DNA of 59,925 nt from Patescibacteria group bacterium (GTDB lineage Bacteria; Patescibacteriota; Minisyncoccia; Phycocordibacterales; Phycocordibacteraceae), in contig JAGWYL010000003.1 of assembly GCA_018969385.1 (NCBI GenBank), forward strand, positions 1 to 59,925. Direction: 5' to 3'. Under the pieces are notes generated by a model. The model did not search any database and was not told the DNA's origin. It was given only the letters and a program-made list of their open reading frames with translations. The translations under genes were made by a program, and so were the position numbers. Each line of letters begins with the position of its first letter. Within the stretch, counting starts at the first letter, position 1. Positions 2,890 to 55,597 of the stretch are shown here, in pieces.

Positions 2890-3561
2890 ATGAAGCGTCC
2901 ATTCGGCACCATTCTGAAATATGAGGACATGAAGGATGTTCCTGCCGCTGACAGCGGCGAGTCGCTCGTCGAAGTCGGCACGTATGACCCAGCCATCCTT
3001 GCCGAGTATGAGCAGCATGACATGCGTCCGTACACGGGCGAGCAGATATTCGTTCGCGACACGCTCGCACGGAAGCTGGCGAACGTTAATGACGCGCTTA
3101 TGCAAAGCGGATTGCGTCTGCGCGTGGTGTACGGCTATAGGCATCCGGAGGTGCAGACGCTTTATTTCAACCGACGCAAGGATGCACTGCGCAAGGAACG
3201 TGCGCGCCTCTCCGAAGATGAACTTACCGCACTTGCACACAACTACACTGCCGAGCCGTCCCTTGGCGGCCATCCGATGGGAGCGGCCGTCGACCTGACT
3301 ATGGCCGGAAAGGATGGCATGCCGGTTGATATGGGAACTGCCATATCGGACTTCAGCACGGAAAAGATCGTCACTGATGCAGCCGGCCTGACCAGCGAGC
3401 AGGTGCGGAATCGGCGCATGCTTCATGACGCGATGGTTGCCGAAGGATTCGCGCCATACTACGGGGAGTGGTGGCATTTCTCGTATGGAGACAAGGAGTG
3501 GGCGGCATTTTACGGTAGGCCATCCGCACTGTTCGCGCGGGTCAATTTCAAATTCCCGTAG
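2890..3561 (+). CDS. D-alanyl-D-alanine dipeptidase (VanX/DdpX-like, M15)
   Basis: VVYGYR, GGHPMGAAVDLT and EWWHFSYGD zinc-peptidase motifs. Confidence 0.88.
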   Translation: MKRPFGTILKYEDMKDVPAADSGESLVEVGTYDPAILAEYEQHDMRPYTGEQIFVRDTLARKLANVNDALMQSGLRLRVVYGYRHPEVQTLYFNRRKDALRKERARLSEDELTALAHNYTAEPSLGGHPMGAAVDLTMAGKDGMPVDMGTAISDFSTEKIVTDAAGLTSEQVRNRRMLHDAMVAEGFAPYYGEWWHFSYGDKEWAAFYGRPSALFARVNFKFP

Positions 3562-3576
3562 TACAGTAGTACGCAT

Positions 3577-4929
3577 ATGAAGTCAGTCGCAGATACTTGG
3601 AGTCTCGGTGACGGTTCAGTGAATACCGAGCGGTATTCCCCTTCTCTAGCGGGCACGCTGCTCGTCAACGACGGGACGGCTGTCCACGACGTCGCTGAAC
3701 TGGTTGCCCGGTACGGTTCTCCGCTTGAGATTTTCATTCCGGATACGCTTTCGACACGCGTGCGTGCGGTTCGTGACGCGTTTGATGCAGAGATTCGAGC
3801 CGCGGGATACCGCGGCTCTTTCGCATACCACTATCCGATGAAGGTGAATCAGCGGAAGGAGTTCGTCATGACTGCGGTTCGCGCGGGCGCGAACCTGGAA
3901 ACCTCGTCTCGCAACGAGCTCGCGCTCCTGAAGCGCGCATTCGATGACGGTACGCTCCCGAATTCGGTTCGTGTGCTCTGTAATGGCCCCAAGACGGAAG
4001 CATACCTCGCGCTTGCGCTCGAGATGCATCGCGAGGGGCGCAGCGTCACGCCGATAATCGAGAGCGAAGAGGAGCTGCGCGCCCTCGAAACGTATGACGG
4101 ACCCGTCGGCGTCCGTGCGGACATGAAGCTCAAGATAAGCTCTCATTGGGACAAGAAACATAACCGCTTCGGACTTCCTGAAGATCAGCTGCTCTCGCTT
4201 CCAGCGATACCGAATCTCACCATCGTTTCGTATCACATCAGCTCGCAGATCGAGTCGCTCGACGAAGTCGTGAAGCCGGTCGAGCACATCGTCCAGGTGT
4301 ATGCCGCCCTGCACAAAAGGAACCCCGGGCTTACCACCGTGAACATCGGCGGCGGCGCGGGCATCCCGTATAAGAAGAAGCCGCTCTATTCTATCGAGGA
4401 GCTCGCGGCGGGCGTTGTCCATGCGTGCGCAAGCGCCGCGAAGGCCAATGCAGTGGAGCAACCGAACATCATTTGCGAGTGGGGCCGCTTCATGGCGGCA
4501 CCGGCACAGCTTACGGTCTTCAAGATCATCGGCGCGAAGCGCATCGTCGATGCGCCGGCGAAAGCCTGGTACATCATAGACGGCAGTTTCATCACGGACC
4601 TTCCCGATACCTGGTCCATCCACCAGCGCTGGCATTTCGTTCCCGTCAACGGGCTTGGAAGTGCGGGTCAAACGCCGGTCTGGTTCGCGGGAAGTTCGTG
4701 CGACAGTGATGACGAATACGTACCGGACGAGGGCGCGATAATGATGCCGCCGCTTAGCGACTCCGCACTCTATGTAGCGGCACTCGACACGGGTGCATAT
4801 CAGGACTCTCTTTCTTCGCGGCACTGCCTCCTTTCCCATCCGCGCCGCATTGCCTTGGCGGGCGGACACGTGAGCGAGCACGATGCACCGGATACGCCGG
4901 TGTCCATTGGCGCTCTTTTCGGCTGGTGA
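3577..4929 (+). CDS. PLP-dependent fold-type III basic amino acid decarboxylase (arginine decarboxylase-like)
   Basis: YHYPMKVNQ PLP-lysine motif (SpeA-like YPxKxNQ), NIGGG, CEWGRF, SCDSDD, DTGAYQ. Confidence 0.8.
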   Translation: MKSVADTWSLGDGSVNTERYSPSLAGTLLVNDGTAVHDVAELVARYGSPLEIFIPDTLSTRVRAVRDAFDAEIRAAGYRGSFAYHYPMKVNQRKEFVMTAVRAGANLETSSRNELALLKRAFDDGTLPNSVRVLCNGPKTEAYLALALEMHREGRSVTPIIESEEELRALETYDGPVGVRADMKLKISSHWDKKHNRFGLPEDQLLSLPAIPNLTIVSYHISSQIESLDEVVKPVEHIVQVYAALHKRNPGLTTVNIGGGAGIPYKKKPLYSIEELAAGVVHACASAAKANAVEQPNIICEWGRFMAAPAQLTVFKIIGAKRIVDAPAKAWYIIDGSFITDLPDTWSIHQRWHFVPVNGLGSAGQTPVWFAGSSCDSDDEYVPDEGAIMMPPLSDSALYVAALDTGAYQDSLSSRHCLLSHPRRIALAGGHVSEHDAPDTPVSIGALFGW

Positions 4930-4946
4930 ACGGACCTGTCGGTAAA

Positions 4947-4975
4947 TTGACGGAGGTCATTTTTTGACTTATAAC
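4947..4975 (+). promoter_or_regulatory. Sigma70-type promoter for argS
   Basis: TTGACG-17 nt-TATAAC. Confidence 0.7.
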
Positions 4976-5039
4976 TATTGCGGACTGCCGGAATCGGCAT
5001 GTTCCATCCGCAACCAAGAACCAAGGAAAGGACAGCGCA

Positions 5040-6785
5040 ATGCTGGGCCAGATCGAAACAGCGCTCTCTAAGGCGCTCACTTCCGTGTTTGGCGTCGCGC
5101 ACAAGCCGACACTCACACGGACACCAAATCTCAAATTCGGCGACGTCGCATGGAATTGCATCCCCGCTGCGAAGGCGGCTGGCATTGAACCGGCGAGGAT
5201 GGCCACGGAGCTCGCCACCGAGCTCTCCGCCTCGCCGCTTATCAGTGCCGTCTCGACGCAGGGGCCATACCTGAATATCACGGTCGTTTCGAAGGTGCTC
5301 TTCGGGACTGCCGTGACGCTCTCTGGCGCGTCCGGGCGCATCCAGACGGAGCAGCCGAAACGTGTGATGGTGGAATACCTTTCCCCCAACACGAACAAGC
5401 CGCTTCACCTCGGGCACGTTCGTAACGGCGTGCTCGGCATGGCTTTGTCGAACATCCTGCATGCAGCCGGACATACGGTTATCAAGGCCGACCTGGTGAA
5501 CGACCGCGGCATTCACATCTGTAAGAGCATGCTCGCCTACCTGAAGACGGGAGCGAACATGACGCCTGAGTCGCTCGGCAAGAAGCCGGATCACTTCGTG
5601 GGCGACATGTACGTCAAGTACGACAAGCTTGAGAAGGCGGCGAAGGAAGATGGCACGGACAAGAAGCTCGAAGCCGAACTTACGCTCATGCTGCAGAAGT
5701 GGGAGGACGGCGACCCGGATACCATCGCTCTCTGGGAAAAGATGAACGGGTGGGTCTATGAAGGGTTCGAGAAGACCATGGAGACCTACGGCTTCCGCTT
5801 CGACAAGATGTATTACGAGTCCGGGCTGTACAAGCTCGGCAAGGACATCGTCGAAGACGGGCTTGCGCGCGGCATCTTCACGCGCTTGCCCGACGGAGCG
5901 GTCGCCTATGAGCTGCCAATCGATCAGTTCGGGACGAATCCGGACGGCGGCCCGCAGCTGTTCACGCTGCTCCGGGCGAACGGGACCTGCCTCTACACCA
6001 CGCAAGATCTGGCGACGGCGAAGCTCAAGTTCGAGGAGTTCGCCCTCGATCGTTCCATCTATGTGGTCGGCGACGAGCAGGACCAGCATTTCAAGAGCCT
6101 GTTCTCGGCTCTTGGTGCTCTCGGCTATGACTGGGCTCTCCAGTGTTCCCACTTCTCCTACGGGATGGTGGAACTTCCGGAGGGCCGCATGAAGTCGCGC
6201 GAAGGCACGGTCGTGGACGCTGATGACCTCTACAGCGACATGGTCAAACGGGCCAGCGCTGCAATCAGTCAGAAGAGCGGCGAGCAGGATGACGGGCAGC
6301 TTGCGCGGCGCGGGGAGACCCTCGCACTCGCAGCTATCAAGTTCTTCCTGCTCTACCCTGCACCGAAGACGACCATCGTCTACGATCCGGCCAAGTCGCT
6401 CGACTTCGAGGGCGAGACCGGGGCGTACTGCCTTTACGCGTATGCTCGCATCAAGAAGCTGTTGCAGACAGCGCGGATGCAGGGAATCTCCTGGTCGTCG
6501 CTGCGGTATCCTGCATCTCTCACCGATGACGACCGCCTACTGGCGCTCGAGCTCCTCGAGTTCCCGCAGACGGTCTTCAACGCAGCCGAAGTGGAAAAGC
6601 CGGCCCATGTCGCGCGCAAGGTCCTGAAGCTTTCCCGGACGCTTCATCGGTTCTATGCGAACCAGCCGGTGCTTACGAGTCCTCCGGCCGTCCGTGAAGC
6701 GCGCCTTGCGCTCCTCGAGGCGACCGCAAAGACGATCGCCTGGGGGCTGGAACTTCTCGGTATCGATGTTCTTGAGCAAATGTGA
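5040..6785 (+). CDS. argS: Arginine--tRNA ligase
   Basis: EYLSPNTNKPLHLGHVRN, NDRGIHICK, MKSREG, FEGETGAYCLYAYARI; purine-rich SD upstream. Confidence 0.96.
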   Translation: MLGQIETALSKALTSVFGVAHKPTLTRTPNLKFGDVAWNCIPAAKAAGIEPARMATELATELSASPLISAVSTQGPYLNITVVSKVLFGTAVTLSGASGRIQTEQPKRVMVEYLSPNTNKPLHLGHVRNGVLGMALSNILHAAGHTVIKADLVNDRGIHICKSMLAYLKTGANMTPESLGKKPDHFVGDMYVKYDKLEKAAKEDGTDKKLEAELTLMLQKWEDGDPDTIALWEKMNGWVYEGFEKTMETYGFRFDKMYYESGLYKLGKDIVEDGLARGIFTRLPDGAVAYELPIDQFGTNPDGGPQLFTLLRANGTCLYTTQDLATAKLKFEEFALDRSIYVVGDEQDQHFKSLFSALGALGYDWALQCSHFSYGMVELPEGRMKSREGTVVDADDLYSDMVKRASAAISQKSGEQDDGQLARRGETLALAAIKFFLLYPAPKTTIVYDPAKSLDFEGETGAYCLYAYARIKKLLQTARMQGISWSSLRYPASLTDDDRLLALELLEFPQTVFNAAEVEKPAHVARKVLKLSRTLHRFYANQPVLTSPPAVREARLALLEATAKTIAWGLELLGIDVLEQM

Positions 6786-6916: not shown

Positions 6917-7534
6917 ATGTCGCTTGTTCTTCCGACTGATGACGTCCCACGACGACCCCGCGGGAAGCCGTTGACGCCGGTCGAAGCACATCCCGTTTGG
7001 GAAGCCGGCCATTATTACGCGGTGAAGGGCGCGACCGAATGGTCACGCGTCGGATGGGAACTACTCGAGCGGCTCGCGCACCCCGAGGCCGCACGTCTGC
7101 TTTTCATCGACGATGTGCACGAACTCGACGAAGTTGGTACGCACGAACGGGATAATCCCCGCATCGACTTCAACCCGTCATCCACGCACACCGTCATGGA
7201 ATCCGAAGTCCTTGACGATGCCTACGAGGTGCTTGAACCGCTCATGCGGCTGCCGAAACGAAAGCGAGTACGGTATTCGGCCAACAAGAAGACCTGGCGG
7301 TGCTCCGGTCATCTGCTCATCCGCGATGACAGCATCCCCACCTGCCTCTTCTACGACCTTGGCCTGACAGTGCGCAAATGCCTTCTTGGCTATCGTTCGG
7401 CGGTCAACATCTTGCCGAAAGCGTACGAGCTTCAGCAGCGGCGGCTTCGGAAAGTGGTTAATAAGGCATTGCCGGGATTCGGACTTACGGTCATCCTGCA
7501 TGACCTCGACGGAAACTGGGAATATCTGGAATGA
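6917..7534 (+). CDS. Hypothetical protein, possibly Rossmann/HUP-like alpha/beta fold
   Basis: GAGG SD and own promoter; EAGHYY, LLFIDDVH, AVNILP segments. Confidence 0.65.
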   Translation: MSLVLPTDDVPRRPRGKPLTPVEAHPVWEAGHYYAVKGATEWSRVGWELLERLAHPEAARLLFIDDVHELDEVGTHERDNPRIDFNPSSTHTVMESEVLDDAYEVLEPLMRLPKRKRVRYSANKKTWRCSGHLLIRDDSIPTCLFYDLGLTVRKCLLGYRSAVNILPKAYELQQRRLRKVVNKALPGFGLTVILHDLDGNWEYLE

Positions 7535-7641: not shown

Positions 7642-8349
7642 ATGGATACGAAGAAGACCATAGGGGTCCTTGGCGGCATGGGCGCGGCCGCATCCGCTGA
7701 TTTCTATCAGCGGCTCGTCGAGCTTGCGCAGAAGGAATTCGGCGCGGTCAGGGATTCGGACTTCCCTCCCATGCTCATCTATAATCTTTCCATACGCGAT
7801 TTCGACGAGACCGGCGTCGTAGATGCTGACAGCGTCATCGCTCAGCTCGTCGCGGGTGTGCGGACACTTGAGTCCGCCGGTGCCGATTTCTTCGTCGTGC
7901 CCTGCAATACGGTACACCGCTTCGCGAAGGAGATGAGCGACGCGGTTTCCATCCCGCTCGTGAGCATCATCGACGCCACCGCTGACGCGGTACAGGACGA
8001 TGGCCTGAGGAAGGTCGGTATTCTGAGCTCACAGACGACGCGGAACGAATCGTTATATGAAAAGGCGCTCGCGTCTCGCGGCATAGCGGTGCTCCACGCG
8101 GATGATGCGGAGCAGGCGAAAATCAATGAGGTCATCGCGCACGTCATGCGGGGCACGAACGGCGCCGAGGACGTGGCGGCGCTTGCGGCAATCGCGAACC
8201 GCTTCAAAGCCGAGGGCGCTGAGGGCGTCGCGCTCGGCTGCACCGAATTGCCGCTCGCCATCACGCAAAAGGACGCCGCTCTTCCGCTCTATGGCTCGAC
8301 GGAAATCCTGGCCCGCGCCGCGCTCAAGTACTCGCTCGGGACTGCGTAG
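7642..8349 (+). CDS. Aspartate/glutamate racemase family protein (RacX/YgeA-like)
   Basis: GVLGGMG, PCNT and GCTE catalytic cysteine motifs. Confidence 0.92.
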   Translation: MDTKKTIGVLGGMGAAASADFYQRLVELAQKEFGAVRDSDFPPMLIYNLSIRDFDETGVVDADSVIAQLVAGVRTLESAGADFFVVPCNTVHRFAKEMSDAVSIPLVSIIDATADAVQDDGLRKVGILSSQTTRNESLYEKALASRGIAVLHADDAEQAKINEVIAHVMRGTNGAEDVAALAAIANRFKAEGAEGVALGCTELPLAITQKDAALPLYGSTEILARAALKYSLGTA

Positions 8350-8433
8350 CGGCGCAGCGTCTCGACAAGCAGGATATGGCGTGCCATAGTGCTCGCGGAG
8401 CGCTATTGCTTCGCACACATTGGAGTACGTCCG

Positions 8434-9446
8434 ATGCAACGAAATCAGCATCCTGTACAGCAGTTGGCGACGGGCGAGAAGCTGTCCGTCACCTCCTATA
8501 GATTCTCGAGTTCACAGCACGGGCCGAAAGTCTATCTCCAGGCGAATATCCACGGTCCTGAGGTGCTCGGCACCGCAGTGCTCACGAAGCTGCTTCCCTG
8601 GTTGCACGAAATGGAAACCAAGGATATGTGCGGTTCCGTGATAGTCGTGCCCTGCGCGAACCCCATGGCCGTCCAGCAGACGGCATACAACAGCATGATA
8701 GGGCGCTGGAACGGCAGGAGCGGCATGAACTGGAATCGCATCACACCCCTGTCGGCGAATGGAGCGGCCATCTGGAGGAGCGGCAGTTTTACGAAAGGAT
8801 CAAGAACGCTCCAAACCCGTCGATAGAGAAGAAGCTTGCTGCGACCTTGCGCGTCTTATCCTGGAGTGCCGATTACGTAGTGGATATCCACACGACGGGC
8901 AATGAGAGCATCGTGCACCTTTTCACGTTCTCGTGGATGGATGAGGCGTTCGCGAGACTCGGCTGCCCGGTACACATCCACATCGATGACGACGGACCGG
9001 CGGGCGCATTCGACGAATCCCATGTGCTTCCGTTCCTAAAATCGATGTCGAGGGACCTCATACCGAAGGCGTGCACGTGGGAGATCGGCTCGCATGGCAG
9101 GATTCCGTCCCAAACGCTGCTCGACCGCAGCGTCGTTCTCAAGCTATGGCTCCGTTCTGTCTGGGACGGAACCACTGCACAGTCTAATGCGCGGTCACTG
9201 TCGAAGCCGGCAGCATTCAAGCGGCTCGGGCATCTGCATGCGCCGTTCGGGGGCTACTACACGTGGCAGAAGAAACCCGGTAGCGCGGTCAAGGCTGGAG
9301 AGACGTATGCGTACGTTTTCCAACCCTGGAACGGGATACGCCGGAAGGCCGTCGCCGAGTTCGACTTCGTCTTGCTCGGCATCTATGGCGCCGACGCGAC
9401 CGCAGCGCACGAACAGATCGGCTGTTTTGCCGCCGACCCGGTGTAG
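8434..9446 (+). pseudogene. Succinylglutamate desuccinylase/aspartoacylase (M14-like) gene split by a frameshift
   Basis: First frame has QANIHGPE, PCANP and NWNR. The second frame continues with DYVVDIHT and a C-terminal biotinyl-like segment. Frames join around the C4 run at 8746-8749. Confidence 0.8.
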
Positions 9447-9582
9447 TACAAGGGGTCTTGTGCATATATGTTCCGTCTGCAATGGCTGATCCTCACGGGT
9501 CGGCCATTGTTCTATAAAAATCGGGTCCGATCCAGCATGATGCCGGAGTCGGACCCGAAACAGACCGTGTGTGGCCTGTACG

Positions 9583-10572
9583 TTACTTCACCCATGCCGT
9601 GCCGCTTCTCCCCGGAAGACGTCCTTGCTTCGAGAAGCTCAGACGTTCGAAGCATTCAGAGTTTCGGAGTGCTTCCGGCAGTCCGTCGAGCGGGACAATT
9701 GCACACGACGCGCCCCGGTTAGACGCTTCTGCGAGAAATGCGTCCAGCATAGCGGCGAGCGCTTCCTCGCCGTCGAAGCGCGAGTAAGCGACATTCGTCA
9801 TGACAGCGGTGCCTTCCTGGAACGAGTACAGCGCGCAGCCGTGTGTCGCCTCATCGACCGTAAAGACACGGTACTGCTCAAGAGTGTTCATGATACGCTC
9901 GCGGCCCTGATCCCCGGCGTAGTCTTCGCCGAGGAAGAGCTTGATTTCCGGTACATCAGTAAGCTCGGCCTTCCTGACGAACTTGAAGCGCCGCATGTCC
10001 GAGTGCACGAACGTTCCGGAGCCGCTCGCCGTCAGAAGTTCCGCGAGAAGCGCGTGTGGATGGTGCGCATCGAACAGATGAACTGTCTCCACCGCGCGTT
10101 CGCAGGCGTTCGCAGCAAGGTCGAGGGTCAGTGTCCAGTCCCGGCTCACTTTCCCGTCGGCAATAAGCTTACGGACTTCCGAAACCGAGGCGTTATTGAG
10201 AACCGTGCCGTCCGCGAGCGTGCAGTTGCCCTCGCACAGGAGGATGAGCTTGTGCAAATTGCACTCATTCGCGATACCGGCGACGTACTCCTTCTCGTTG
10301 CCCCGGACGACGGACTGGACATAGATGGAGTCGGGCAGACCGTTCCAGAACATAGCGTCCATGGCTTCCGCGACGATGACAGGAACGCCATTCTCAAGGA
10401 GAAGCTCGATGTCCTCGCTGAGGATGGCCATATCATCGGAGTGGATTTGCGCGATGCCGTACGGCATGATGAGCACGTTACGGCCGCGCGTGTTGCGCAG
10501 ACAGTGGAGCGCTGCGCGGACCGCTGCAGTGTCGTCGGCGTAGGCGCGTCGCCGCGCTTGCTTTTCAGACAT
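9583..10572 (-). CDS. Degenerate ArgA-like protein (amino-acid-kinase domain plus GNAT-like domain)
   Basis: VHLFDAHHPHALLAELLTASGSGTFV, then VRKAELTDVPEI; AAGGAG SD. Confidence 0.7.
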   Translation of the reverse strand: MSEKQARRRAYADDTAAVRAALHCLRNTRGRNVLIMPYGIAQIHSDDMAILSEDIELLLENGVPVIVAEAMDAMFWNGLPDSIYVQSVVRGNEKEYVAGIANECNLHKLILLCEGNCTLADGTVLNNASVSEVRKLIADGKVSRDWTLTLDLAANACERAVETVHLFDAHHPHALLAELLTASGSGTFVHSDMRRFKFVRKAELTDVPEIKLFLGEDYAGDQGRERIMNTLEQYRVFTVDEATHGCALYSFQEGTAVMTNVAYSRFDGEEALAAMLDAFLAEASNRGASCAIVPLDGLPEALRNSECFERLSFSKQGRLPGRSGTAWVK

Positions 10573-10719
10573 CAGATACTCCTTCGCCCTATCAGAGGGC
10601 TTGACTGAGAGTTACGGGGAGTTTGGACGACATGAGTTGGAAAATATCGTCCGAAAACACTTTACACCGCACGTCAAGCACTGTCCACTTGACATGCGGT
10701 CATGATGTCGTGCCAAAAA

Positions 10720-12342
10720 TCAGGCGACAAGCGGCAATTCGACGATGAAGGTGGAGCCCCTATCCTTCCCTTCCGACTCGGCGCGGATGGTACCGCCGTG
10801 GGCAGTCACGATGTTCTTCGCGATGAAGAGCCCGTAGCCGGTCGAGTGGACGTTTATCTTTTGCGATTCCTTGCCGTGGCCGCCTTCCGTGAAGAGGCGT
10901 GCCTTGTCCTCGTCCGTGATGCCGACGCCCGTGTCCTTGACCGCGAAGACGGCTTTCCCGTCCTTTCTCGAAAGCGTGACATTGATGCTTCCCGAAGGCG
11001 TGTAGTTGATGGAGTTGTCCACGAGGTTCCCGAGTACGTGATCGCCGAGCTCCACCTTGTCGGCGGATACGGTATACGGCTTACCCGCTTCATCGGCTGC
11101 GTACGTGAGCGTAAGGCCCTTCGCATCGGCGTGCTCCCTGAGCTTCGCGACCGCTGCGGCTGCGAGCGCATCGAGGTCGAGCGGCTCCTTCGTATACTCC
11201 ACGGTCCCCTTCTTCTGGTTCGAGGCCTTGAGGATCTGCAGAACGGACGTCACGCTGTCACGCGATTGCGTGAGGGCGCGGTCGACGAACGGCTTCATGC
11301 CGTCCGGCAGCGCGCCGAAGTCGCCCTCGGAAAGCGCCGCGAAGGCGCCCATGTCCTTCGTGAGGAAGTTCTTCACCTCGTGGCTGATGAAACGGATGAG
11401 GTTTTCCTGCCGCTGGTTCGTGTCTTCAAGTTCTACGGCGAGCTTCTCTATCCGCTCCCGCTGTTCCACCTCCTTTACGACGCCGCGCGCGAGAAGAAGG
11501 CCGACGATGAGGATGAGCACGAACAGGCTGGTCCGGAAGAGTATGAGGATAGGATCGGTGGTGAAGATGAGCTCGAGCAGTGTCGCTATCGCGAGTGCGG
11601 ACACGAGGAGCGCCGTTCCGATCTCTTTCACGTTCAGCACGCGTCCCGTATAGATCGCGTATGCCGTCAATCCGATGAACGGGAGCAGGAATAGCGTCCC
11701 GAACGCAACGAAAGAGGAATTGCCGAGAAATGCGGGGAGTATGAAGCTGAACGCGAGTATTAGCAGTATCGTGGCGAACGTGCCGAGCAGTATCAGGCGG
11801 TACGGCCTTCGCTCCGCGCCCTGCGCACGGAGCGTCTTTTGCACCAGGAAGAACAGAGCGCCGATATCGAGCATGAGAACCAGGATGCCGAACAGGATGA
11901 TTCCGGGGCCGTTGACGACCTGGGTTACCTGCCCGTTTACGGAAAAGCTGCTGACCGCCGTGAAGACGAGCGGCGTGAGCGTGATGACCGAAACGAGGAG
12001 CGTCGCTGGAAGCACGGCGAGACGATACCAGCGAGGCAAGGGATGCTCCCGGTCCGGAAAGACGAAGAAGAAGGTGAAGAGCGAATAGGCGAACCAGACC
12101 GCGGTGAACATGATCATCCGCAGGAACCACAGCACGATAAGGGGGCTTGAGGACTGGTAGATCGCGTAGTTGAAAAGGCTCCAGACGACCGACGTTCCCG
12201 TGAGCGCCAGGAAGAAGCGATGCGTGATGCTGCCCATGTCGCTCAGATACACGACGAAACCCGTCGATATGAGTATCGCGGCTACCGCACCTACGGAAAG
12301 GAGCCCCGCGTTAACGTCGATTGCCAGGACCCCGTTCAGCAT
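10720..12342 (-). CDS. Sensor histidine kinase with N-terminal multi-TM domain
   Basis: Many hydrophobic helices, H-box ISHEVKN, N-box NLVDNSINYT, DTGVGI, STGYGLFIAK; start MLNGVL. Confidence 0.93.
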   Translation of the reverse strand: MLNGVLAIDVNAGLLSVGAVAAILISTGFVVYLSDMGSITHRFFLALTGTSVVWSLFNYAIYQSSSPLIVLWFLRMIMFTAVWFAYSLFTFFFVFPDREHPLPRWYRLAVLPATLLVSVITLTPLVFTAVSSFSVNGQVTQVVNGPGIILFGILVLMLDIGALFFLVQKTLRAQGAERRPYRLILLGTFATILLILAFSFILPAFLGNSSFVAFGTLFLLPFIGLTAYAIYTGRVLNVKEIGTALLVSALAIATLLELIFTTDPILILFRTSLFVLILIVGLLLARGVVKEVEQRERIEKLAVELEDTNQRQENLIRFISHEVKNFLTKDMGAFAALSEGDFGALPDGMKPFVDRALTQSRDSVTSVLQILKASNQKKGTVEYTKEPLDLDALAAAAVAKLREHADAKGLTLTYAADEAGKPYTVSADKVELGDHVLGNLVDNSINYTPSGSINVTLSRKDGKAVFAVKDTGVGITDEDKARLFTEGGHGKESQKINVHSTGYGLFIAKNIVTAHGGTIRAESEGKDRGSTFIVELPLVA

Positions 12343-12344
12343 AG

Positions 12345-14357
12345 CTATATTGGAAAGGTAGCACGATAATGGCCGTGATTGTAGAAGTTGATAACCGCAT
12401 CGGGGTGAAGCGCGGCAGCCTCGGCTCTGGAGTTGAATCTGACTGACGAAAAGACGGCGGCATTGAGGAACACGGGACTGTGCCACCCGGTCAGGCTGAG
12501 GAGCGGAAGGACTATCTCGTTACGGTATCCGTCATAATTGAGCGTACGAGAGGCGAAGTCGCGCATCTCCGCTACGAGCCGCGCTCGCTCTCCTTCCGGG
12601 AGATGATGGAGGAAGAGGACGGTCATCGCGATGTCGAAAAAATGCGGAGGAAATGCCGTCGGGAGCGTGAAGATGTCGTTATCCGCGGCTATGACCAGTA
12701 TCGAGTCGCCTGCTTCCCGCTCGTAATCAAGCAGCGCCTCCTTCGTGAGGCCGCTCACATGGATGAAACGGACACCCGGAAGATTCCGCAGGTTCCTTTC
12801 AGCATAGGCGCGCGCGCCCGAAGATATGTCGAATCCGACGATGGTGACGGGGCAGTGTGCGTCGTGTGCCCCAAGCCGTTCGATGAACTGTCGCTCCGCT
12901 TCCATGCTGCCACTCCCGAGCGAAGCGATGCGAAGGCGCGTACCGCCCGGCACGCGTGCTGCGGATTCGGTAAGGTAGCCGACGACCGGCTCTATGATTC
13001 CCGGCCGCGGTCTCCGTTCGATTTCCGACATCTTCTCGTGGAAGATCTCGTCGAGTTCGGGAAGCAGCTCGTTTATTTCGAGCAGGTGTTCGCGCCGTAT
13101 GCGTTTACGCGCGCCGTACAGCCATGTAAGGTAGCGTAAGGGTGAGCGGAGGGATTCGAAGAAAAGGATATTCTGTTCCACGGCGTACTGCTGATCCGGC
13201 AGGCCGTACGAAAGCATGCCGAGTTTCGCTGCAACCGCGTCGAGCTGTGCGCGCCGTTCGGTAGGAACAGCGGACGCCTGTGCGCGCCCGTCAACGGAAC
13301 TTTCCGGCACCTTCCGATAGCTTACCTCCGTCGGCGGCGCGGACTTTCCGATGCGGAAGACGAGGATGGGCGTCGTGCCGGCGGGTACGAGCTGCTTGAT
13401 TGCTTCATAGGCGCCGCCGATACGGGACCTGTCTGCATTCCCAAACAGCCGCGCGACCGCCGGGATGTCGAGGGAGCGAGCAAGGAACAGGAGACCGGTG
13501 ACAATCTGCACCGAATAGCCGTTCGCGGCGGCGCCGAGCCATGCGCGCTCAAGCGCGCGTCCGGTCTCAAGATAGGCAGAGCGGTCAAGCGTGCTGCCGT
13601 AGAGCACGACGAGCGCGGACGCGCTCGCATCCTGCTTCGCGTTCGTTTCCGCGACGAGGGTCGGGAAGCCGGCGAGAGAAAGGAGGCGGGCGACCGGCCA
13701 GTAGCGCAGGATAGCGAAGAGAGCCTTTGCGGGCGGCGGAAGCTCCAAGGTGTCGATGTGCAAGCCGGGCTCGCCTGCCCGATTCCTTGCCGCAGACCAG
13801 AAGATGCTCCCGAAGAAAAGCGCGTGCAGCGGCCGGTTGGACAGCGCCGTCTCCTCCATCACCGTGAGCGCGCGCGCGGCGCGCTCCATGCGCTCGCGTT
13901 CCTCTATGAGGGCGATACCGACTCCAGACTCGGAACCCCTCACAGCATCCCTAAGCGCCTCGCGCATCGCATCCGAGAGCGGCGCGACCGCATACGCCTT
14001 CCGGTTCGTGTGGCGCTTCAGGATGGAACGGCGCAATGCAGCCTCTTGCGCGCTCGGTTCGCCGCCCGAGGAAAGCTCAAGCGTAGCTACGCGCTCCCCT
14101 TCCGCATGGTACGTCACGCGCGGCAGGAAGCCTTGCGAGAGGGATTCCAGCCGCGCGTTCTCTATAGCGGCGCCGAGCGCGATGAGCGTGCCGCTTCGTT
14201 CGAAATTCAGGAGCTCATTGTCGAGTTCGGGCCGATAGAAGAAGTCGATTGCGGACCCGCGGACCTCGAACCGCCACGGCTGCGAATTATCGCCGGACGG
14301 CGCGGCGGCGGCGGCTTCAAGTATCGCTCGCAGCTTTTCCGGAGGTATGCCGGCCAT
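12345..14357 (-). CDS. Nitroreductase-family domain fused to a class I SAM-dependent methyltransferase
   Basis: AAPSGDNSQPWRF, RHTNRKAY, TGRALERAWL in the N half; IASLGSGS, VGFDIS, FDIAMTVLFLHHL in the C half. Confidence 0.85.
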   Translation of the reverse strand: MAGIPPEKLRAILEAAAAAPSGDNSQPWRFEVRGSAIDFFYRPELDNELLNFERSGTLIALGAAIENARLESLSQGFLPRVTYHAEGERVATLELSSGGEPSAQEAALRRSILKRHTNRKAYAVAPLSDAMREALRDAVRGSESGVGIALIEERERMERAARALTVMEETALSNRPLHALFFGSIFWSAARNRAGEPGLHIDTLELPPPAKALFAILRYWPVARLLSLAGFPTLVAETNAKQDASASALVVLYGSTLDRSAYLETGRALERAWLGAAANGYSVQIVTGLLFLARSLDIPAVARLFGNADRSRIGGAYEAIKQLVPAGTTPILVFRIGKSAPPTEVSYRKVPESSVDGRAQASAVPTERRAQLDAVAAKLGMLSYGLPDQQYAVEQNILFFESLRSPLRYLTWLYGARKRIRREHLLEINELLPELDEIFHEKMSEIERRPRPGIIEPVVGYLTESAARVPGGTRLRIASLGSGSMEAERQFIERLGAHDAHCPVTIVGFDISSGARAYAERNLRNLPGVRFIHVSGLTKEALLDYEREAGDSILVIAADNDIFTLPTAFPPHFFDIAMTVLFLHHLPEGERARLVAEMRDFASRTLNYDGYRNEIVLPLLSLTGWHSPVFLNAAVFSSVRFNSRAEAAALHPDAVINFYNHGHYRATFPI

Positions 14358-14360
14358 ACG

Positions 14361-15482
14361 CTACAGTCCGATGGATGCGAAGAAGTTCGCTCGCGCCGCT
14401 TCGCGGTTCGAAACGGTTTCCGGCGCATGGTAATCAGGGTCAAGAAGCGCATCGAGGCTCACCTCGCACTTTTCCTCCCGCACCGGCAGCCCGAGCGCGA
14501 GGCGCTTCAGCACATAGGCGATGGCCGCTCCGGAAAGCGTCGCCGCGTCGCCCGGCTGCGGCCAGGAGTATATCTCGCGGCCCACCTGGAGGAGCGATTG
14601 CATCATGCGTTCCGTGACGAAGTGCTGCCCTGCTATCTTCGTCGCGAGTTTCGGAAGCTCGGAGGGTTCGAACGACTTGAAAGACTCGAGCGTCACGTCG
14701 CCGATGATGCCGTTGAAGAGCGGCTTTGCGCGGTCGAGGTCGAATCGCTCCGTCTCGATGATGATGTTGTCGCCGTTGTCGGTCGCCATCACCACCGGTA
14801 TGCCGCGCTCGCGCGCGGCGATGCGGAGGCGTATCTTCATCTCAAGGTTGTCCGTTTCCTCGACGAGGACGTCCACGCCCGAGAGGAACTCGGCAAGATT
14901 CCCGTCAGTGACGCCTCCGTCATAGGCCGTGATGTCCGCATAGGGGTCGAGCTGGTAGAGGTACTCGCGCACCAGGTCCGCCTTCTTCCGCCCCACGGAA
15001 AGGAAGTCGAAGCGGATGCGGTTCAGGTTCGACGGGGAGACCTCGTCCGGGTCGGCTATCTTGATGCTCCGCGCGCCACCCATGAGCGCGAACGTAAGTG
15101 CGCCGTGGCTGCCCACGGATAGCCCCGCGTACGCGACGGTGAGTCCATAGAGCTTCTGCTGCTCCTCGTGCGTTACGATATTCCTGTTGCGCGCCGTGCG
15201 AATCTCAAGATGCTCGTCGCAGGGCAGGTAATGCGCAAGCGTGCCGCTCCAGGGAAAGTAGAACCACTCGCCGAGGGCGTCGGGAGCGCGTAGGGCGGCA
15301 TACGCATCCTTATACGCCGCGAGGTCGGCCGCATAATCCTTGATGAACTTATAGCGCGGATTACGGATGAGGAACTGGTCCTCAAGCAGGAGGTCGTACC
15401 GGTCTACCACCCGGGTCGGCGAAAGGCGTGCCTTAAATTCCGCAAAGGTCTCCTTCGCACGATCGAGCCGCTCCGGCCTCAT
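14361..15482 (-). CDS. ThiF/E1-like adenylating enzyme, Rv1355c/MoeY type
   Basis: WFYFPWSG, RTARNRNIVTHEEQ, YAGLSVGS, ADPDEVSPSNLNRI, EETDNLEMK. Confidence 0.88.
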   Translation of the reverse strand: MRPERLDRAKETFAEFKARLSPTRVVDRYDLLLEDQFLIRNPRYKFIKDYAADLAAYKDAYAALRAPDALGEWFYFPWSGTLAHYLPCDEHLEIRTARNRNIVTHEEQQKLYGLTVAYAGLSVGSHGALTFALMGGARSIKIADPDEVSPSNLNRIRFDFLSVGRKKADLVREYLYQLDPYADITAYDGGVTDGNLAEFLSGVDVLVEETDNLEMKIRLRIAARERGIPVVMATDNGDNIIIETERFDLDRAKPLFNGIIGDVTLESFKSFEPSELPKLATKIAGQHFVTERMMQSLLQVGREIYSWPQPGDAATLSGAAIAYVLKRLALGLPVREEKCEVSLDALLDPDYHAPETVSNREAARANFFASIGL

Positions 15483-51022: not shown

Positions 51023-52132
51023 TTAGGAGTGGAGGAAAACCATCACGTCCCCGTCCGCGACCACGTATTCTTTCCCTTCCGTGCGGACGAGCCCCTTTTC
51101 GCGCGCGGCGGCGTAGGAGCCCGCGGACAGGAGCGACTCGGCGGCGATGACTTCCGCGCGGATGAACTTGTCCATGAAATCGGTGTGTATCGCCGCGCCG
51201 GCGACGGGTGCCGTCGCGCCCCTCGGGATGGTCCACGCGCGCGTTTCCTTCACGCCGGTGGTGAAAAATGATATGAGGTCGAGCGTCGCGTACGCGCCGC
51301 GGATGAGGTCCGCGAGCCCGTCCGCATGCACGCCAAGTTCCTCACGGAATCCGGCGCGGTCTTCGTCCGCGACATCGTTGAGCTCCCGTTCGGTCGCGGC
51401 GTCCACCATGACGTAGCGGGAGCCGAGCGCTGCAATCGCTTCGTATGCCTCCGCCGCGCGGCCGTCCGTAAGCTCGTCGAGGTTGTGCCCGCCGGACTTG
51501 CGGTTGAGCGCATAGAGGACCGGCTTCATCGTGAGGAGATTGAGGTGCGCGATGAGCGCGATCTCTTCGTCCGAAAGCCCCGCCTTGCCCGCGAAGGTTC
51601 CGCGCGCGAAGGCTTGGCCGAGCTTCGCGAGAACGGCTGCCTCGGCGATGGCCGCCTTCTGGCCGGCCTTCACGTCGCGCGCAAGCTTCTCCTCGCGCTT
51701 CTTGACCTGTTCCGAGTCCGCGAGTACGAGCTCGAGGTTGATTATCTCGATGTCGCGCACCGGATTCACTTCCCCGTCCACATGATGGATGTCCGCATCG
51801 TCGAAGAAGCGGACGACCTCGAGGATGGCGTCCGTCTCGCGGATATGCGTGAGGAACTGGTTGCCGAGGCCCTCGCCTTCGGACGCACCGCGCACGAGCC
51901 CCGCGATATCCACGAATTCGACCGCGGCGGGAACCGTCTTCTCGGAAGACGAAAACTTAGCGAGCGCCTCAAGGCGCGCATCCGGCACGCCGACGACGCC
52001 CACCGACGGGTCGATGGTGCAGAACGGATAGTTCTCCGCCGGCACGCTCGCCTTGGTGAGCGCATTAAAAAGCGTCGATTTCCCGACGTTCGGCAGTCCG
52101 ACGATTCCTATCTTCAGTTGTGTACTGGCCAT
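51023..52132 (-). CDS. ychF: Ribosome-binding ATPase YchF
   Basis: [46 protein letters not shown]. Confidence 0.97.
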
Positions 52133-52325
52133 AATAAGTTGAAATAACCGGGATGAACCCCGACACTTGAAGCTTCTCTTGCGTGCCGACAATCTTCTCT
52201 ACGGTTCTCAATACTATCGCACGTTTCTGTTCGAAGTTCAAATCGCCTGACAGAAGTTCCTCCATCGATTCGGCGTAGTCGTTGATCTCTTCCCCACTTG
52301 GCGTTGGGTTATAGTCATTCTTCAA
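52065..52325 (-). pseudogene. Probable C-terminal remnant of a large serine recombinase overlapping the ychF start
   Basis: FEQKRAIVLRTVEKIVG...GFIP resembles LSR C-termini (recollection); no catalytic N-terminus; reads into ychF in another frame. Confidence 0.55.
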
Positions 52326-52331
52326 TCCCGT

Positions 52332-52628
52332 ATGTTAAGTGTCAAAGAATTAGTCTCCCCGTACCGTGGCTCTGAAAAGACCTACGAGATGGTTAAGGAC
52401 CAGATAGAAGAACGCTGGGGTGAGGAGTGTGCCGAGGAGTTCGATCCCACATGCGACGCAATGCCTTACGCCTCTTGGGTCGCCTACGGGTACCAGGTAA
52501 GGAAGGGCCAGAAGTCGCTCAAATCGATTACATTCATCGATTCCAAAGACGCAACAACGGGCGAAGTGAGAAAAATAAAGAGAACGGTGAATTTATTCCA
52601 TCGTCGCCAGGTCGAGAAAGCCCCATGA
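52332..52628 (+). CDS. ArdC N-terminal-like ssDNA-binding protein
   Basis: YASWVAYGYQVRKGQK...LFHRRQVE pattern. Confidence 0.6.
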   Translation: MLSVKELVSPYRGSEKTYEMVKDQIEERWGEECAEEFDPTCDAMPYASWVAYGYQVRKGQKSLKSITFIDSKDATTGEVRKIKRTVNLFHRRQVEKAP

Positions 52629-52858
52629 TTACCAAACGCATGACGGTTACTCGTGCCCCTGGGACCGAGAATACGCCCATGGTGAAGATTGCGAATCGTA
52701 CGCTTGACGCTATGGGCTTCGGAATCGGCGCATCAGTCGTTGTTGCTTACGAGCAGGAACGAAACGTTATTAGTATCAGCTTAGGAACTAAACATGAATC
52801 AAACATCTTATCGAAGTCGCCTGTCGCCTTACCAGCTCAAACCGCAGCATCCCATTGA
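52625..52858 (+). CDS. SymE/AbrB-like small protein
   Basis: PMVKIANRTLDAMGFGIGASVVV pattern; ATGA overlap with the upstream stop. Confidence 0.45.
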   Translation: MITKRMTVTRAPGTENTPMVKIANRTLDAMGFGIGASVVVAYEQERNVISISLGTKHESNILSKSPVALPAQTAASH

Positions 52859-53366
52859 TGTGATGCGTGCGAAGGTTTACGACGTGCAAGACAAAGAGAA
52901 TCCTATACGCGCCGAGATTGAGAAGTGCATCGGCACCCACACTATCAAGGCAGTAGTCGAAGAAGATCGGCAGACGCTCGATGCAATGGGCGTGGACGGA
53001 TTGATATCGTTCCTTTGCACTATGACCAAAGACGGCCGCGTGCTGTCGCAGGGTCGTGGCAGTGCAATGATTGGACCTCAAAATCGATTCTTTCAGAGAA
53101 CTGTTGCGTGTGCCTTTAATTCGGCCTTGGCAGATGCCGCTATCCGGGCAACAAAGGTATTAGATCAGCTTCGTGACAAATCAGGAGCAGAGGAAACATA
53201 CGAAGATAGCGCCCCGGAACCTGCTACTGATAAGCAACGGGAATATCTCAAACAGTTGATTCAAGCCAACGTGAGAGACGAGAGTGCGCTTGCTACGTGG
53301 ATGAATCGCATCGGTGAGATCTCGAAGTCGGAAGCATCAGACGCGATAAAGTCATTCAAGAACTAG
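52794..53366 (+). CDS. Hypothetical phage-like protein, possibly Rad52/Sak-like single-strand annealing protein
   Basis: GRVLSQGRGSA...AFNSALADA, then C-terminal PATDKQREYL...SKSEASDAI module. Confidence 0.5.
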   Translation: MNQTSYRSRLSPYQLKPQHPIDVMRAKVYDVQDKENPIRAEIEKCIGTHTIKAVVEEDRQTLDAMGVDGLISFLCTMTKDGRVLSQGRGSAMIGPQNRFFQRTVACAFNSALADAAIRATKVLDQLRDKSGAEETYEDSAPEPATDKQREYLKQLIQANVRDESALATWMNRIGEISKSEASDAIKSFKN

Positions 53367-53373
53367 TTGTGGT

Positions 53374-53556
53374 ATGAGGTATCGAGTTTGGCTATCTGAA
53401 ACAGAGCCATTGCCCGTTGAGGTTGAAGCCGACAATCCCACTCACGCACAGCAAAAGGTCGAGGAGATGCTGTATAAGGGAACGCTGTGGGAGGAAAATT
53501 CAATCGAAATGAGCGAGGGGTGTCTTGAAGTCAGTAGTGTTGAACAGGTCGCGTAA
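53374..53556 (+). CDS. Small acidic hypothetical protein
   Basis: 60-aa ORF continuing the plus-strand operon up to a terminator. Confidence 0.5.
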   Translation: MRYRVWLSETEPLPVEVEADNPTHAQQKVEEMLYKGTLWEENSIEMSEGCLEVSSVEQVA

Positions 53557-53558
53557 AA

Positions 53559-53595
53559 ACAAGAACGGCGGGTCTTTTGGATCCGCCGTTCTTGT
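53559..53595. terminator. Bidirectional terminator between convergent island genes
   Basis: ACAAGAACGGCGG / CCGCCGTTCTTGT 13-bp stem. Confidence 0.7.
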
Positions 53596-53610
53596 TGTGT
53601 TGCCTAGAGA

Positions 53611-53724
53611 TCAAGCTCGTCTACGGGTGGCTTTCTCCAGAGTTTCAGCATCCGTAAGCTTGATTCCGTAATGCTTGAGATACAACGCTCTGAATTCGTC
53701 GAGCTTGTCTTTCGGGATCATCAT
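53611..53724 (-). CDS. 37-aa ORF (MMIPKDKLDEFRALYLKHYGIKLTDAETLEKATRRRA), possibly truncated
   Basis: Manual translation; ATGA-coupled to the upstream gene. Confidence 0.4.
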   Translation of the reverse strand: MMIPKDKLDEFRALYLKHYGIKLTDAETLEKATRRRA

Positions 53725-54059
53725 TGCGAGCGTGCGACACACTTCCTCGAGCCGTTGCTTTCCCACTGATATCCGGAATCGCACACGCAAATGGGGACAT
53801 CATCTGAATCGCTTAATCCGCCCCAGACCGCGTGTGGCCCCCAGCTCCTTTCGCAAATACGATCCGGTTCCACACAATCAGATGCAACCAGCGGGTCATT
53901 CTCAAGAGCCGTGTTCCCTGTTATTGCATTGACCCGGTCGCAGACTCTCTTGGCTACGGACAGTTCGCTTGCCGTCGGTGCCTGAGGTTTGAATGAATAG
54001 AATACGACCGCAGCAAACGCCGCTATGATCACCAGTCCGATGAGCGTTTGGCGGGTCAT
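53721..54059 (-). CDS. Membrane-anchored cysteine-rich protein with an EGF-like C-terminus
   Basis: N-terminal TM helix, six Cys, CVCDSGYQW...C. Confidence 0.55.
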   Translation of the reverse strand: MTRQTLIGLVIIAAFAAVVFYSFKPQAPTASELSVAKRVCDRVNAITGNTALENDPLVASDCVEPDRICERSWGPHAVWGGLSDSDDVPICVCDSGYQWESNGSRKCVARSQ

Positions 54060-54062
54060 GAC

Positions 54063-54293
54063 TTACACAAATAACGAATACACAAAGATACCTACCACAA
54101 TGAAAGTGGCCCAAAAGAATCGATGAGCCGCGGCATCAGGGTTTTGTCCTGTAGCACCTTGTTCCCGCTTCTCGGCCGGGCTGAGCTCGAAACTGAGCGC
54201 TGCAAGGATAGCCACGATAGACAGCCACATATGCTGGTCCCACAAACGATACGCGGCGATTGCACCCAGAATCCATACAACAATCTGCAACAT
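54063..54293 (-). CDS. Small membrane protein
   Basis: Three hydrophobic segments from MLQIVVW. Confidence 0.45.
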   Translation of the reverse strand: MLQIVVWILGAIAAYRLWDQHMWLSIVAILAALSFELSPAEKREQGATGQNPDAAAHRFFWATFIVVGIFVYSLFV

Positions 54294-54771
54294 AGGAAAG
54301 ACGCTTAGCCGGGTAATGCTGGCGCGTCGTGTATCTATAGACACTGAACCGCATGCCAGCTGGTCTTGCGACCCGTGACCCTTTCGGACCACGACCCAAC
54401 GAAGGAATGGCTGAACATGCGGTTCAGTGTCTTCGTTGGGTTTTCTTGGCCATGCCTACGGTTTAAGCCGTAAGTTTAGGCCACTCACCTATAAATCTTA
54501 TCATGTGACTAAAGAGAACCCTATGCACTAGGGTAAAGTCCATAAAACACGATTTGCGATTATGCACTGGAGTAAATATCAGACGATATGTTTTGATCCG
54601 ATTGTTACTTACTCTTGCTAGCTTTAGCGGTTTTGAGAGCCAGCCGTTTTGCTTCCCGCTTTCGTCCACCCCTCCAAAGCGTCCTATTGTCCGGTGGCGG
54701 GAGTTTGATAGTGAAGTTGAACGGAATCCCCTTCCCTCGCCCTGAGCCTAAAAATTGGCCGCTAGAGAGCA

Positions 54772-54792
54772 GACAATGCCTACGCGCAGCAT
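54772..54792 (-). pseudogene. Displaced original 5' end of ychF
   Basis: ATG CTG CGC GTA GGC ATT GTC = MLRVGIV, then divergence and a stop soon after. Confidence 0.8.
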
Positions 54793-54841: not shown

Positions 54842-55366
54842 TCACGAAGGCGAATCCTTCGGGACGTACGTGCGCGTGAGTATGTGCGCGTACTCGAGCA
54901 CGCCTCCCGTGACGAACACGCCGACGGCGTACAGGACGCACATGCCGAAATACCCGAGTCCGACGCCGCCGAAGAACGTGAGGAGCAGTATCCCGAGGTA
55001 CCCGGAGAGCGAGACCGCGCCGCCGAACCAGAGCGGGACATAGCGCTTCGCCATGAGCCAGAGGTCGAAGATGATGAAAAGTATGAGCGTATTCTCGAAC
55101 CAGAACGCTGCGGTGAGCACCCGTTCCGACCCGAAGGGACTGCCGTACTCAAGAAGCGCGAGAAGCGGATTCACGATGAGGAGCGCGAGCACGCTCGCCG
55201 CGAGCGCGCGGCCGAGCCGCGTGAGGTACACGCGCTCGTGCTCGTCCATGACGCCGTCCGCAAGCGCACGCACGCGCCCGTATTCGGCGAAGAGCGCGAT
55301 GCCCGCGCCAAGGAGCGCGGCGAGCGCGTGAAGGTCAATGAGAAGCGGATAGACGACGTCCGTCAT
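54842..55366 (-). CDS. Hypothetical multi-pass membrane protein
   Basis: Several hydrophobic helices; backbone codon style. Confidence 0.7.
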   Translation of the reverse strand: MTDVVYPLLIDLHALAALLGAGIALFAEYGRVRALADGVMDEHERVYLTRLGRALAASVLALLIVNPLLALLEYGSPFGSERVLTAAFWFENTLILFIIFDLWLMAKRYVPLWFGGAVSLSGYLGILLLTFFGGVGLGYFGMCVLYAVGVFVTGGVLEYAHILTRTYVPKDSPS

Positions 55367-55369
55367 GGG

Positions 55370-55597
55370 CTAGCGCTGCATGAGCTTCTGCAGTTCTCCG
55401 CGATACTTGCGCATGACCTCCATCGAAGCCTTCATCTCGCTCTCTCCTCCTTTCTTGCGGCGCTCGACCTCCTCGCTAATCTTCTTGAACAGGTCCGGGT
55501 CCTTCTTCACGAGCGCGAGTATCTGCTCCCGCTGCGCCTCCGGCACGTCCTTCATCTTCCAATTCGCCACCAGACGCAGTATGAAATCTTTCAGCAT
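55370..55597 (-). CDS. Small helical hypothetical protein
   Basis: 75 aa, extended -10 box upstream. Confidence 0.7.
   Translation of the reverse strand: MLKDFILRLVANWKMKDVPEAQREQILALVKKDPDLFKKISEEVERRKKGGESEMKASMEVMRKYRGELQKLMQR

Follow-up and report, generated by a model that had tools for sequence, protein, structure and literature searches.

The DNA studied here carries, at the start of ychF, a conserved GTPase gene, what appear to be the remains of a mobile element. The window, that is, the whole analysed stretch of 59,925 nucleotides (contig JAGWYL010000003.1 of assembly GCA_018969385.1), is contig 24 of a 757-kb, 32-contig, 92.6%-complete metagenome-assembled bin, the relatives of which bear the public-record label Patescibacteria/Candidate Phyla Radiation (CPR). 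We conclude, with a probability of roughly 0.87, that the segment from 52.1 to 54.8 kb is what decay has left of an integrative element that was moved by a large serine recombinase (LSR) and targeted the Gly-Ile-Val codons at the ychF start. With 86 of about 550 LSR codons left, the locus is not autonomous, and the remnant is most likely stuck in place. A sequence-only reading of this DNA had proposed a serine-recombinase element targeting ychF that was either immobilized by an internal deletion or was a satellite relying on a recombinase in trans; the comparisons described here support the target and the deletion, whereas the satellite gained no positive support. Feature coordinates are collected in Table 1.

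The window ychF is a full-length member of the YchF/OLA1 family, with the MMR_HSR1 G domain and the YchF C-terminal domain; its residues 5–368 align with those of relatives, and it is 69–77% identical to full-length copies from the same genus. The present 5' end of the gene reads ATG GCC AGT ACA CAA CTG AAG ATA GGA ATC GTC GGA CTG CCG, where codons 1–8 (MASTQLKI, 52109..52132) are element DNA and host DNA extends from the Gly-Ile-Val codons on. At the other end of the island, the native start survives as a stub, MLRVGIV, which 49 nt separate from the stop of the gene preceding it (54842..55366), and is followed by unrelated DNA that encodes CSLAANF and then a stop. The Gly codons of the two starts are 2,672 bp apart, both starts share a junction core (gTAGGCATTGTC vs aTAGGAATCGTC, that is, TAGG(C/A)AT(T/C)GTC), and both ends of the element could be identified (INDEPENDENTLY). 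The guanine-plus-cytosine (GC) content between the junctions is 50.1%, compared to 61–62% in the flank on each side. The supply of the ychF start by island DNA, the stranding of the original start some 2.7 kb away and the shared core, all of which had been read from the letters alone, hold as claimed.

This two-junction structure is more than a chance resemblance, because, in the 7.8 kb that precede ychF, the sense strand matches the loose pattern M-x(1-4)-[IVL]-G-[IVL]-V only at the stub, and because the same anatomy was found again in six other elements. Empty sites, which the sequence-only reading had named as a check, are present in relatives: all 21 same-genus ychF starts that were read lack the island, with minimal variants such as MKIGIV, MMLKIGIV and MLNIGIV. 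The host genes beyond the stub precede ychF in the empty-site order, and the 75-aa gene among them (55370..55597) lies upstream of ychF in 13 same-genus loci at 64–71% identity. Rejoining the two host arms in silico yields a ychF of 365 aa.

The recombinase is represented by an 86-aa open reading frame (ORF) that overlaps ychF by 68 nt. Searches of this ORF against Pfam, PHROGs and PADLOC gave no match, so its identity as a recombinase comes from six-frame searches of related genomes. By BLASTP, it is 41% identical (E = 1e-17) to residues 473–548 of a 548-aa LSR, and it aligns with the last 75–86 residues of LSRs of 541–568 aa that combine Resolvase, Recombinase and Zn ribbon domains; against five intact LSRs from the same genus, identity is 54–60%. 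A profile search of the kind suggested beforehand gave nothing, but alignment to the C-terminus of bona fide LSRs bore out the recombinase-like C-terminal fragment that had been perceived over the new start. The 548-aa proteins of two related genomes, G220 and G407, contain Resolvase, Recombinase and Zn_ribbon_recom domains, and the catalytic motif ATYxRVST is found in the sisters. The window ORF has neither the Recombinase (PF07508) nor the zinc-ribbon (PF13408) domain by Pfam, both of which are present in the 548-aa sisters, and the Resolvase catalytic domain (PF00239) is absent from the ORF and from the whole 92.6%-complete genome, which also lacks a second copy of this LSR. Altogether, about 460 of about 550 LSR codons (about 84% of the gene), including the catalytic domain, are missing.

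As noted at the outset from the letters, the fragment has no N-terminus and starts 6 bp from a divergent ORF, whose first base is 52332. The closest fragment (P0001) remains homologous up to a few bases from 52331, so that the break falls essentially on the ATG of this divergent 98-aa ORF. The last 11–12 residues of the fragment are ychF P-loop DNA read in another frame, and the conservation of the LSR terminal residues is accordingly that of the P-loop codons of ychF read out of frame. A HMMER search of a library of 1.84 billion representatives with the 86-aa fragment recovered 112 clusters (P0001–P0112), nearly all of proteins of 39–300 aa with the same C-terminal piece, these short proteins ending in the ...RxRRxAxRxxIDAF type of terminus; the clusters reflect either an abundance of decayed copies or the truncation of numerous genes where contigs end, at a site that breaks assemblies.

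Just upstream of the fragment, across the putative deletion junction, there is a sigma-70-like site, TTGACA-17-AAGAAT (52345..52317, minus strand; 10/12), with the -35 box antisense to codons 3–5 of the 98-aa ORF and the -10 box at the start of the LSR fragment. This is a single consensus match, with 2.1 expected by chance; it could be a fusion promoter for ychF. We also considered a conserved ychF promoter within the LSR 3' end, namely, a TTGAAx / xATAxT pair whose end lies about 80 nt upstream in about 19 of 55 loci, and rejected it, because the pair coincides with conserved codons, those for LNF and IDKIV, and the window does not have it.

Full-length sister elements at ychF, which the sequence-only reading had recommended seeking, were found. 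The six-frame search with the 86-aa ORF covered 401 genomes of the order and matched 19 other genomes, nine of them in open frames of 520–578 aa and most others in short ones; 15 of the 19 matches lie directly before ychF with a like N-terminal extension (MSSLSIGIV, MSYSALSIGIV, MSGAKLTIGIV and others). Scanning an LSR alignment against one genome per species produced 42 close loci, mostly in Patescibacteria metagenome-assembled genomes, and the LSR ORF terminates within an N-extended ychF in 36 of the 40 loci examined, with extensions of the MSxxKLSIGIV or MAGTKLKIGIV pattern in these 36 loci and in the same-genus elements. In our survey of the window's own family, a sample of 201 genomes, five carry intact LSRs (551–568 aa) at ychF, all in the same genus, and three more carry fragments, whereas most of the sample has no LSR fragment. 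Among the same-genus intact elements, the ychF starts that were read have the sequence MAGTKLKIGIV or MAGSKLQIGIV. Of the intact sisters, those for which both ends could be mapped measure 9.7 kb (G300), 14.2 kb (G063), 16.5 kb (G407) and 17.0 kb (G220), and, within the genus, 12.6 kb (G538) and 15.2 kb (G526); the arrangement of stub plus tail, discussed below, is also present at loci L038, L039, L042, L046, L047, L048, L132 and L133. We therefore define, by comparison, a ychF-start-targeting, self-splitting LSR family of Patescibacteria, which is not a published family. The window fits this definition, with an LSR 3' end over an N-extended ychF and, at the far end, a stub together with the tail motif in the LSR frame.

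The gene content of the sisters varies. A small HTH_17 gene adjoins the LSR in G300, G407 and G526 and is a candidate directionality factor. Cargo includes Prim-Pol with PriCT, a HerA/FtsK-like ATPase and NurA; DUF3800; and a C5 methyltransferase with an AAA_25 protein. At locus L133 (G538:C2), positions 8300–15126 encode a full type I restriction-modification system (HsdR/M/S) and then a UvrD-like helicase, so that the family acts as a vehicle for defence islands. The elements examined showed no capsid genes, and a scan of IMG/VR viral contigs yielded only recombinases of 22–28% identity; the family is not among the recognized viruses there.

Several other loci are remnants. G350 has a 2.6-kb remnant with a 163-aa fragment and G364 a 1.9-kb remnant with a 67-aa fragment, and truncated LSR fragments also lie beside ychF in G584 and in GCA_027422685.1 (113 aa). 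The interiors and break points of these four differ, which argues that decay by internal deletion is recurrent, and what survives is the piece adjoining ychF, as expected if it carries the start of the gene. The LSR fragments of the window and G584 are 93% identical in DNA over 211 nt, compared to 71% for ychF, pointing to recent movement between species of at least this piece of DNA. The ychF contig breaks in G005 and G015, initially candidates for the same element, proved to be an insertion sequence (IS) and an ordinary contig end.

A same-lineage remnant in G584, a genome of the window's genus (L131, G584:C46, sense-oriented 3480–5600), has three copies of the ychF start: a stub, MLKIGMV, with the tail; an LSR fragment with an extended start; and, 47 bp of unrelated sequence further on, an entire ychF with the native start MLKIGIV. 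This triple start could reflect an illegitimate join, repair by incoming DNA or an assembly chimera.

The sequence-only reading had missed the conserved tail of the LSR, whose coding sequence lies at the far end of the island. Comparison of the family members places attP within the recombinase gene. Once the element is integrated, the LSR frame runs through the junction and reaches its stop in host DNA. Upon joining the P' arm (the element arm at the stub end) to the fragment at the core, the same frame runs on as ...LLSSGQFLGSGRGKGIPFNFTIKLPPPDNRTLWRGGRKREAKRLALKTAKASKSK to a stop, and the detached piece (54778..54605) reads ...GKGIPFNFTIKLPPPDNRTLWRGGRKREAKRLALKTAKASKSK, also up to a stop. 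The tail motif (I/V)PFxF(T/V)IK(L/I)PxP occurs at the far end of the window island and of six sisters, in frame after joining, and the many synonymous third-position changes in a codon alignment show that the tail is conserved at the protein level. In four uninterrupted LSR genes away from ychF, on contigs labelled Bacteroidota, the tail is contiguous with the recombinase, and an alternative frame of three of the four encodes a mimic of the ychF start, such as MSHCALTVGIV; the four genes are uninterrupted attP forms. When the joined, ‘excised-form’ LSR was used to search for homologous proteins, the integrated protein was the sole match.

The genes with a contiguous tail are found at L093 (JBDUCW010000002.1, 85 kb) and L101 (JAUXUD010000104.1, 185 kb), and also at L067 and L085, with the label Bacteroidota/Ferruginibacter. 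Loci of the L093/L101 type may represent large replicons that have not integrated, elements that arrived there by a different route, or contigs assigned to the wrong bin.

Comparing attL with attR in seven elements, GG (of the Gly codon), A (of Ile) and G (of Val) are common to all, AT is common to six of the seven and GT to five. A common core this short fits a serine recombinase with a 2-bp crossover. The crossover lies within the Gly-Ile-Val codons, where the sequence fixes no dinucleotide and any choice within the nine bases keeps both frames; the GT of the Val codon, which four elements had suggested, was dropped upon comparison of all seven.

The comparisons show the following design of the family. 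The P arm (the element arm next to ychF) carries a mimic of the ychF start (here MASTQLKI), leaving the gene intact after insertion, and the native ATG with 4–7 codons remains as a stub at the other end of the element. The last 11 or so residues of the integrated LSR come from ychF DNA in another frame, and its true tail (...IPFxFTIKLPxP...) is stranded at the far end. In the window, an internal deletion of about 7–14 kb, a size estimated from the intact sisters of 9.7–17 kb, would have removed the first ~460 LSR codons together with the adjacent Xis-like helix-turn-helix (HTH) gene and whatever genes for replication or defence the element had, fusing LSR codon ~465 to the start of the cargo operon. 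The element would now be immobile, and ychF would permanently draw its start codon, and probably its promoter, from element DNA.

Table 1. Features of the ychF locus and its island in the window.
Feature	Position	Strand	Remarks
ychF GTPase gene, 369 aa	51023..52132	-	Pfam MMR_HSR1 4e-22, YchF-GTPase_C 3e-31
3' remnant of large serine recombinase gene, 86 aa	52065..52325	-	about 16% of the protein; overlaps ychF start
attR core region GGAATCGTC	52100..52108	-	Gly-Ile-Val codons of ychF; element P arm meets host B' DNA
Cargo operon, four small ORFs	52332..53556	+	only sub-threshold Pfam hints: ArdC-N, SymE/AbrB-like, DUF3072, DpnD/PcfM
Operon ORF, 98 aa	52332..52628	+	begins at putative deletion junction
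Operon ORF, 77 aa	52625..52858	+	
Operon ORF, 190 aa	52794..53366	+	
Operon ORF, 60 aa	53374..53556	+	
Hairpin, 17-nt arms, end of plus-strand operon	53558..53596	+	inverted repeat I3, 94% complementary
Cargo ORF, 59 aa	53611..53790	-	no family match
Cargo ORF, 112 aa, cysteine-rich, membrane-anchored	53721..54059	-	no family match above threshold
Cargo ORF, 109 aa, membrane protein	54063..54392	-	no family match
LOOT RNA (Rfam RF03000)	54362..54482	-	81.9 bits vs gathering score 46.4, E = 3e-15
Detached 3' end of LSR gene (P' arm)	54605..54778	-	conserved tail IPFNFTIKLPPP
attL core GGCATTGTC	54772..54780	-	
Stranded native ychF start ATGCTGCGCGTAGGCATTGTC (MLRVGIV)	54792..54772	-	ATG CTG CGC GTA GGC ATT GTC
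Host genes preceding ychF in empty-site order	54842..55597	-	174-aa membrane protein and conserved 75-aa protein

We weighed this scenario against three others. The first, which we regard as improbable, is that the island is a recombinase-less satellite, resembling the cis-mobilizable elements (CIMEs), that has kept both att halves and undergoes excision and integration whenever an intact sister, with its LSR, enters the cell. In its favour, the two junctions can still be recognized, as can the tail-coding P' piece, the cargo ORFs and the LOOT RNA (Table 1) are intact, intact sister elements circulate in the genus, and the excess of fragment over ychF identity with G584 would be read as recent horizontal spread. 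However, a helper LSR and any Resolvase domain are absent from the genome, and there is no evidence of trans-mobilization, with both the exact reconstructed attB (the empty site) and the exact P-P' (circle) junction absent from the metagenome contigs. Moreover, the remnants of G350, G364, G584 and the window differ in interior, truncation point and P'-side identity (76%), which argues against the small remnants being copies of one spreading satellite, and the retention of some 80 LSR codons is more simply due to the need for a ychF start.

We consider it very improbable that the locus is an old, vertically inherited scar, in which the LSR fragment has been selected for a role in ychF expression, providing promoter, leader and start, or for a small protein that it encodes. 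The abundance of short proteins among the 112 clusters, the maintenance of 50–160-aa fragments directly before ychF in many genomes and the sigma-70-like site would fit such selection, but the island GC content is still 11–12 points below that of the host, and the fragment is absent from the 21 same-genus ychF starts as well as from most of the 201-genome sample. The promoter match is within chance expectation, and many of the short library proteins may be genes cut by contig ends. In any case, this explanation concerns why the piece persists and is compatible with the deletion scenario. Finally, a chimeric contig assembled from strains with and without the element is conceivable in a metagenomic bin of this kind, given that contigs of related bins break at the ychF start, but we assign it a negligible chance, because the junction anatomy is the same in six independent genomes, one of them a closed contig, and joining the junctions restores the tail frame, whereas a chimera would not yield a stub, a frame-matched tail and a matching core.

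Several observations weigh against a deletion-immobilized remnant. A closely related intact parent was not found, the best intact relatives being those 54–60% identical over the fragment, so that the size and content of the deletion are estimates. Given the 92.6% completeness of the genome, the recombinase might be encoded on an unassembled piece. The first ~25 bp of the window P' arm deviate from the (A/T)CACAA-nnn-GACAT usual in the sisters, and the fragment identity shared with another species, far above that of ychF, marks recent horizontal movement.

The remnant might also not be inert, although we hold this rather doubtful. Because the ychF start, and probably its promoter, lies in the last ~200 bp of the LSR gene, selection on ychF would lock this piece of the dead gene in place, which would explain the widespread LSR C-terminal fragments before ychF (112 clusters, many genomes); the retained attL, attR and tail-coding piece could let an incoming intact sister element excise or capture the remnant or stack onto it. 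If so, ychF would be a renewable landing pad for defence islands in Patescibacteria, and the disparity in identity between fragment and ychF would be a trace of such traffic.

The cargo of the remnant is small. Searches of the island ORFs with Pfam, PHROGs and PADLOC gave sub-threshold hints only, and no record matched the 190-aa protein exactly. Homologues of the 98-aa and 190-aa ORFs are present in the intact sister elements of G112, G075 and G220, and that of the 77-aa ORF in the intact G112 element only. The hairpin at the end of the plus-strand operon is likely a terminator. Of the two minus-strand ORFs that overlap by 70 nt, one may not be real; the 112-aa ORF combines a membrane anchor at its N-terminus with a C-terminus rich in cysteine, and its sole match is a weak, cEGF-like hit.

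The island also encodes a LOOT RNA, the second feature absent from the sequence-only reading. The match covers model positions 1–121, that is, the full length, a perfect 17-nt inverted repeat (I2; 54339–54355 / 54416–54432) is located at the RNA, and this is the only copy in the genome. The Rfam 14 paper places LOOT among metagenomic-based RNAs. Within five intact sisters, LOOT is found at 7146–7267 (L038), 12459–12572 (L039), 11130–11250 (L041), 6154–6277 (L042) and 7249–7370 (L046). We considered LOOT as a marker of this element family and rejected it, given that 149 of the 401 genomes of the order carry the RNA, often in 2–4 copies. A distant serine recombinase lies within 2 kb of LOOT at 4 of 20 other LOOT loci, and LOOT looks like a mobile-element RNA of Patescibacteria.

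On the host side, ychF is followed on the minus strand by a DUF5671-like membrane gene and leuS, an order that recurs in one related genome. Just downstream of ychF, the segment 50500–50950 has a strong C/T skew (GC skew to -0.52, AT skew -0.55) and no convincing ORF.

The result for this locus is mainly a clean annotation, namely, a dead rather than active integrative element whose junctions are readable to the base. It provides one data point on Patescibacteria-wide LSR islands that rewrite the start of a conserved GTPase, have their attP in the integrase gene and decay in place, leaving a host gene dependent on element DNA. To the family, the locus adds a decay end-state and an association with LOOT RNA, placing that RNA in a defined mobile element of an identified bacterial group. 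Serine integrases are tools for genome engineering, and a C-terminus that changes upon integration could inform the control of directionality.

LSR elements that insert within genes are well known, among them A118 in comK, SPbeta in spsM, skin in sigK and phi3T in kamA. The ychF family is like these in that intact sisters encode a protein of about 550 aa with Resolvase, Recombinase and Zn ribbon domains, and in the very short junction core, the coding-gene target and the small HTH gene beside the integrase. In contrast to those systems, which interrupt the target, the ychF family repairs it by supplying a new start and 4–8 new codons; its elements are without capsid genes and carry cargo of the restriction-modification, helicase and Prim-Pol type, and the enzyme of the window is reduced to 86 residues. 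The integrase genes of Myxococcus phage Mx8 (intP/intX) and of the archaeal SSV type are altered or split by their own integration, so that, as in the ychF family, the integrated and free forms encode different C-termini, but these are tyrosine recombinases and the ychF-family LSRs do not belong with them. CIMEs are att-flanked remnants of integrative and conjugative elements (ICEs) or prophages without a recombination module. The window remnant is similarly flanked by both junctions, lacks a recombinase and has kept cargo; unlike a CIME, it cannot be lost cleanly by ordinary deletion, since it holds the ychF start codon.

Two published cases come close in location or design. A defective pneumococcal prophage lying upstream of ychF has been reported to switch the expression of that gene (Chen et al. 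2019, as cited in PMC8637289). It is likewise a decayed element with its int end beside ychF that could influence ychF expression, but it belongs to another family, and, with its attB in the intergenic space separating a DUF951 gene from ychF, it does not substitute any of the coding sequence. The ychF family is unusual in combining a repaired target start with an attP in its own recombinase gene, for which the SPbeta-like phage Goe14, with a serine integrase truncated by its own integration (bioRxiv 10.1101/2021.11.22.469490), is a partial precedent. In both, attP lies in the 3' part of the LSR gene, and integration swaps the C-terminus and leaves a tail-coding piece at the other end, the counterpart in the window being the piece at 54605..54778. 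The two differ in LSR lineage, host phylum and target: Goe14 disrupts spoVK, whereas the ychF family keeps ychF intact and has a tail of 25–60 aa with the conserved IPFxFTIKLPxP motif.

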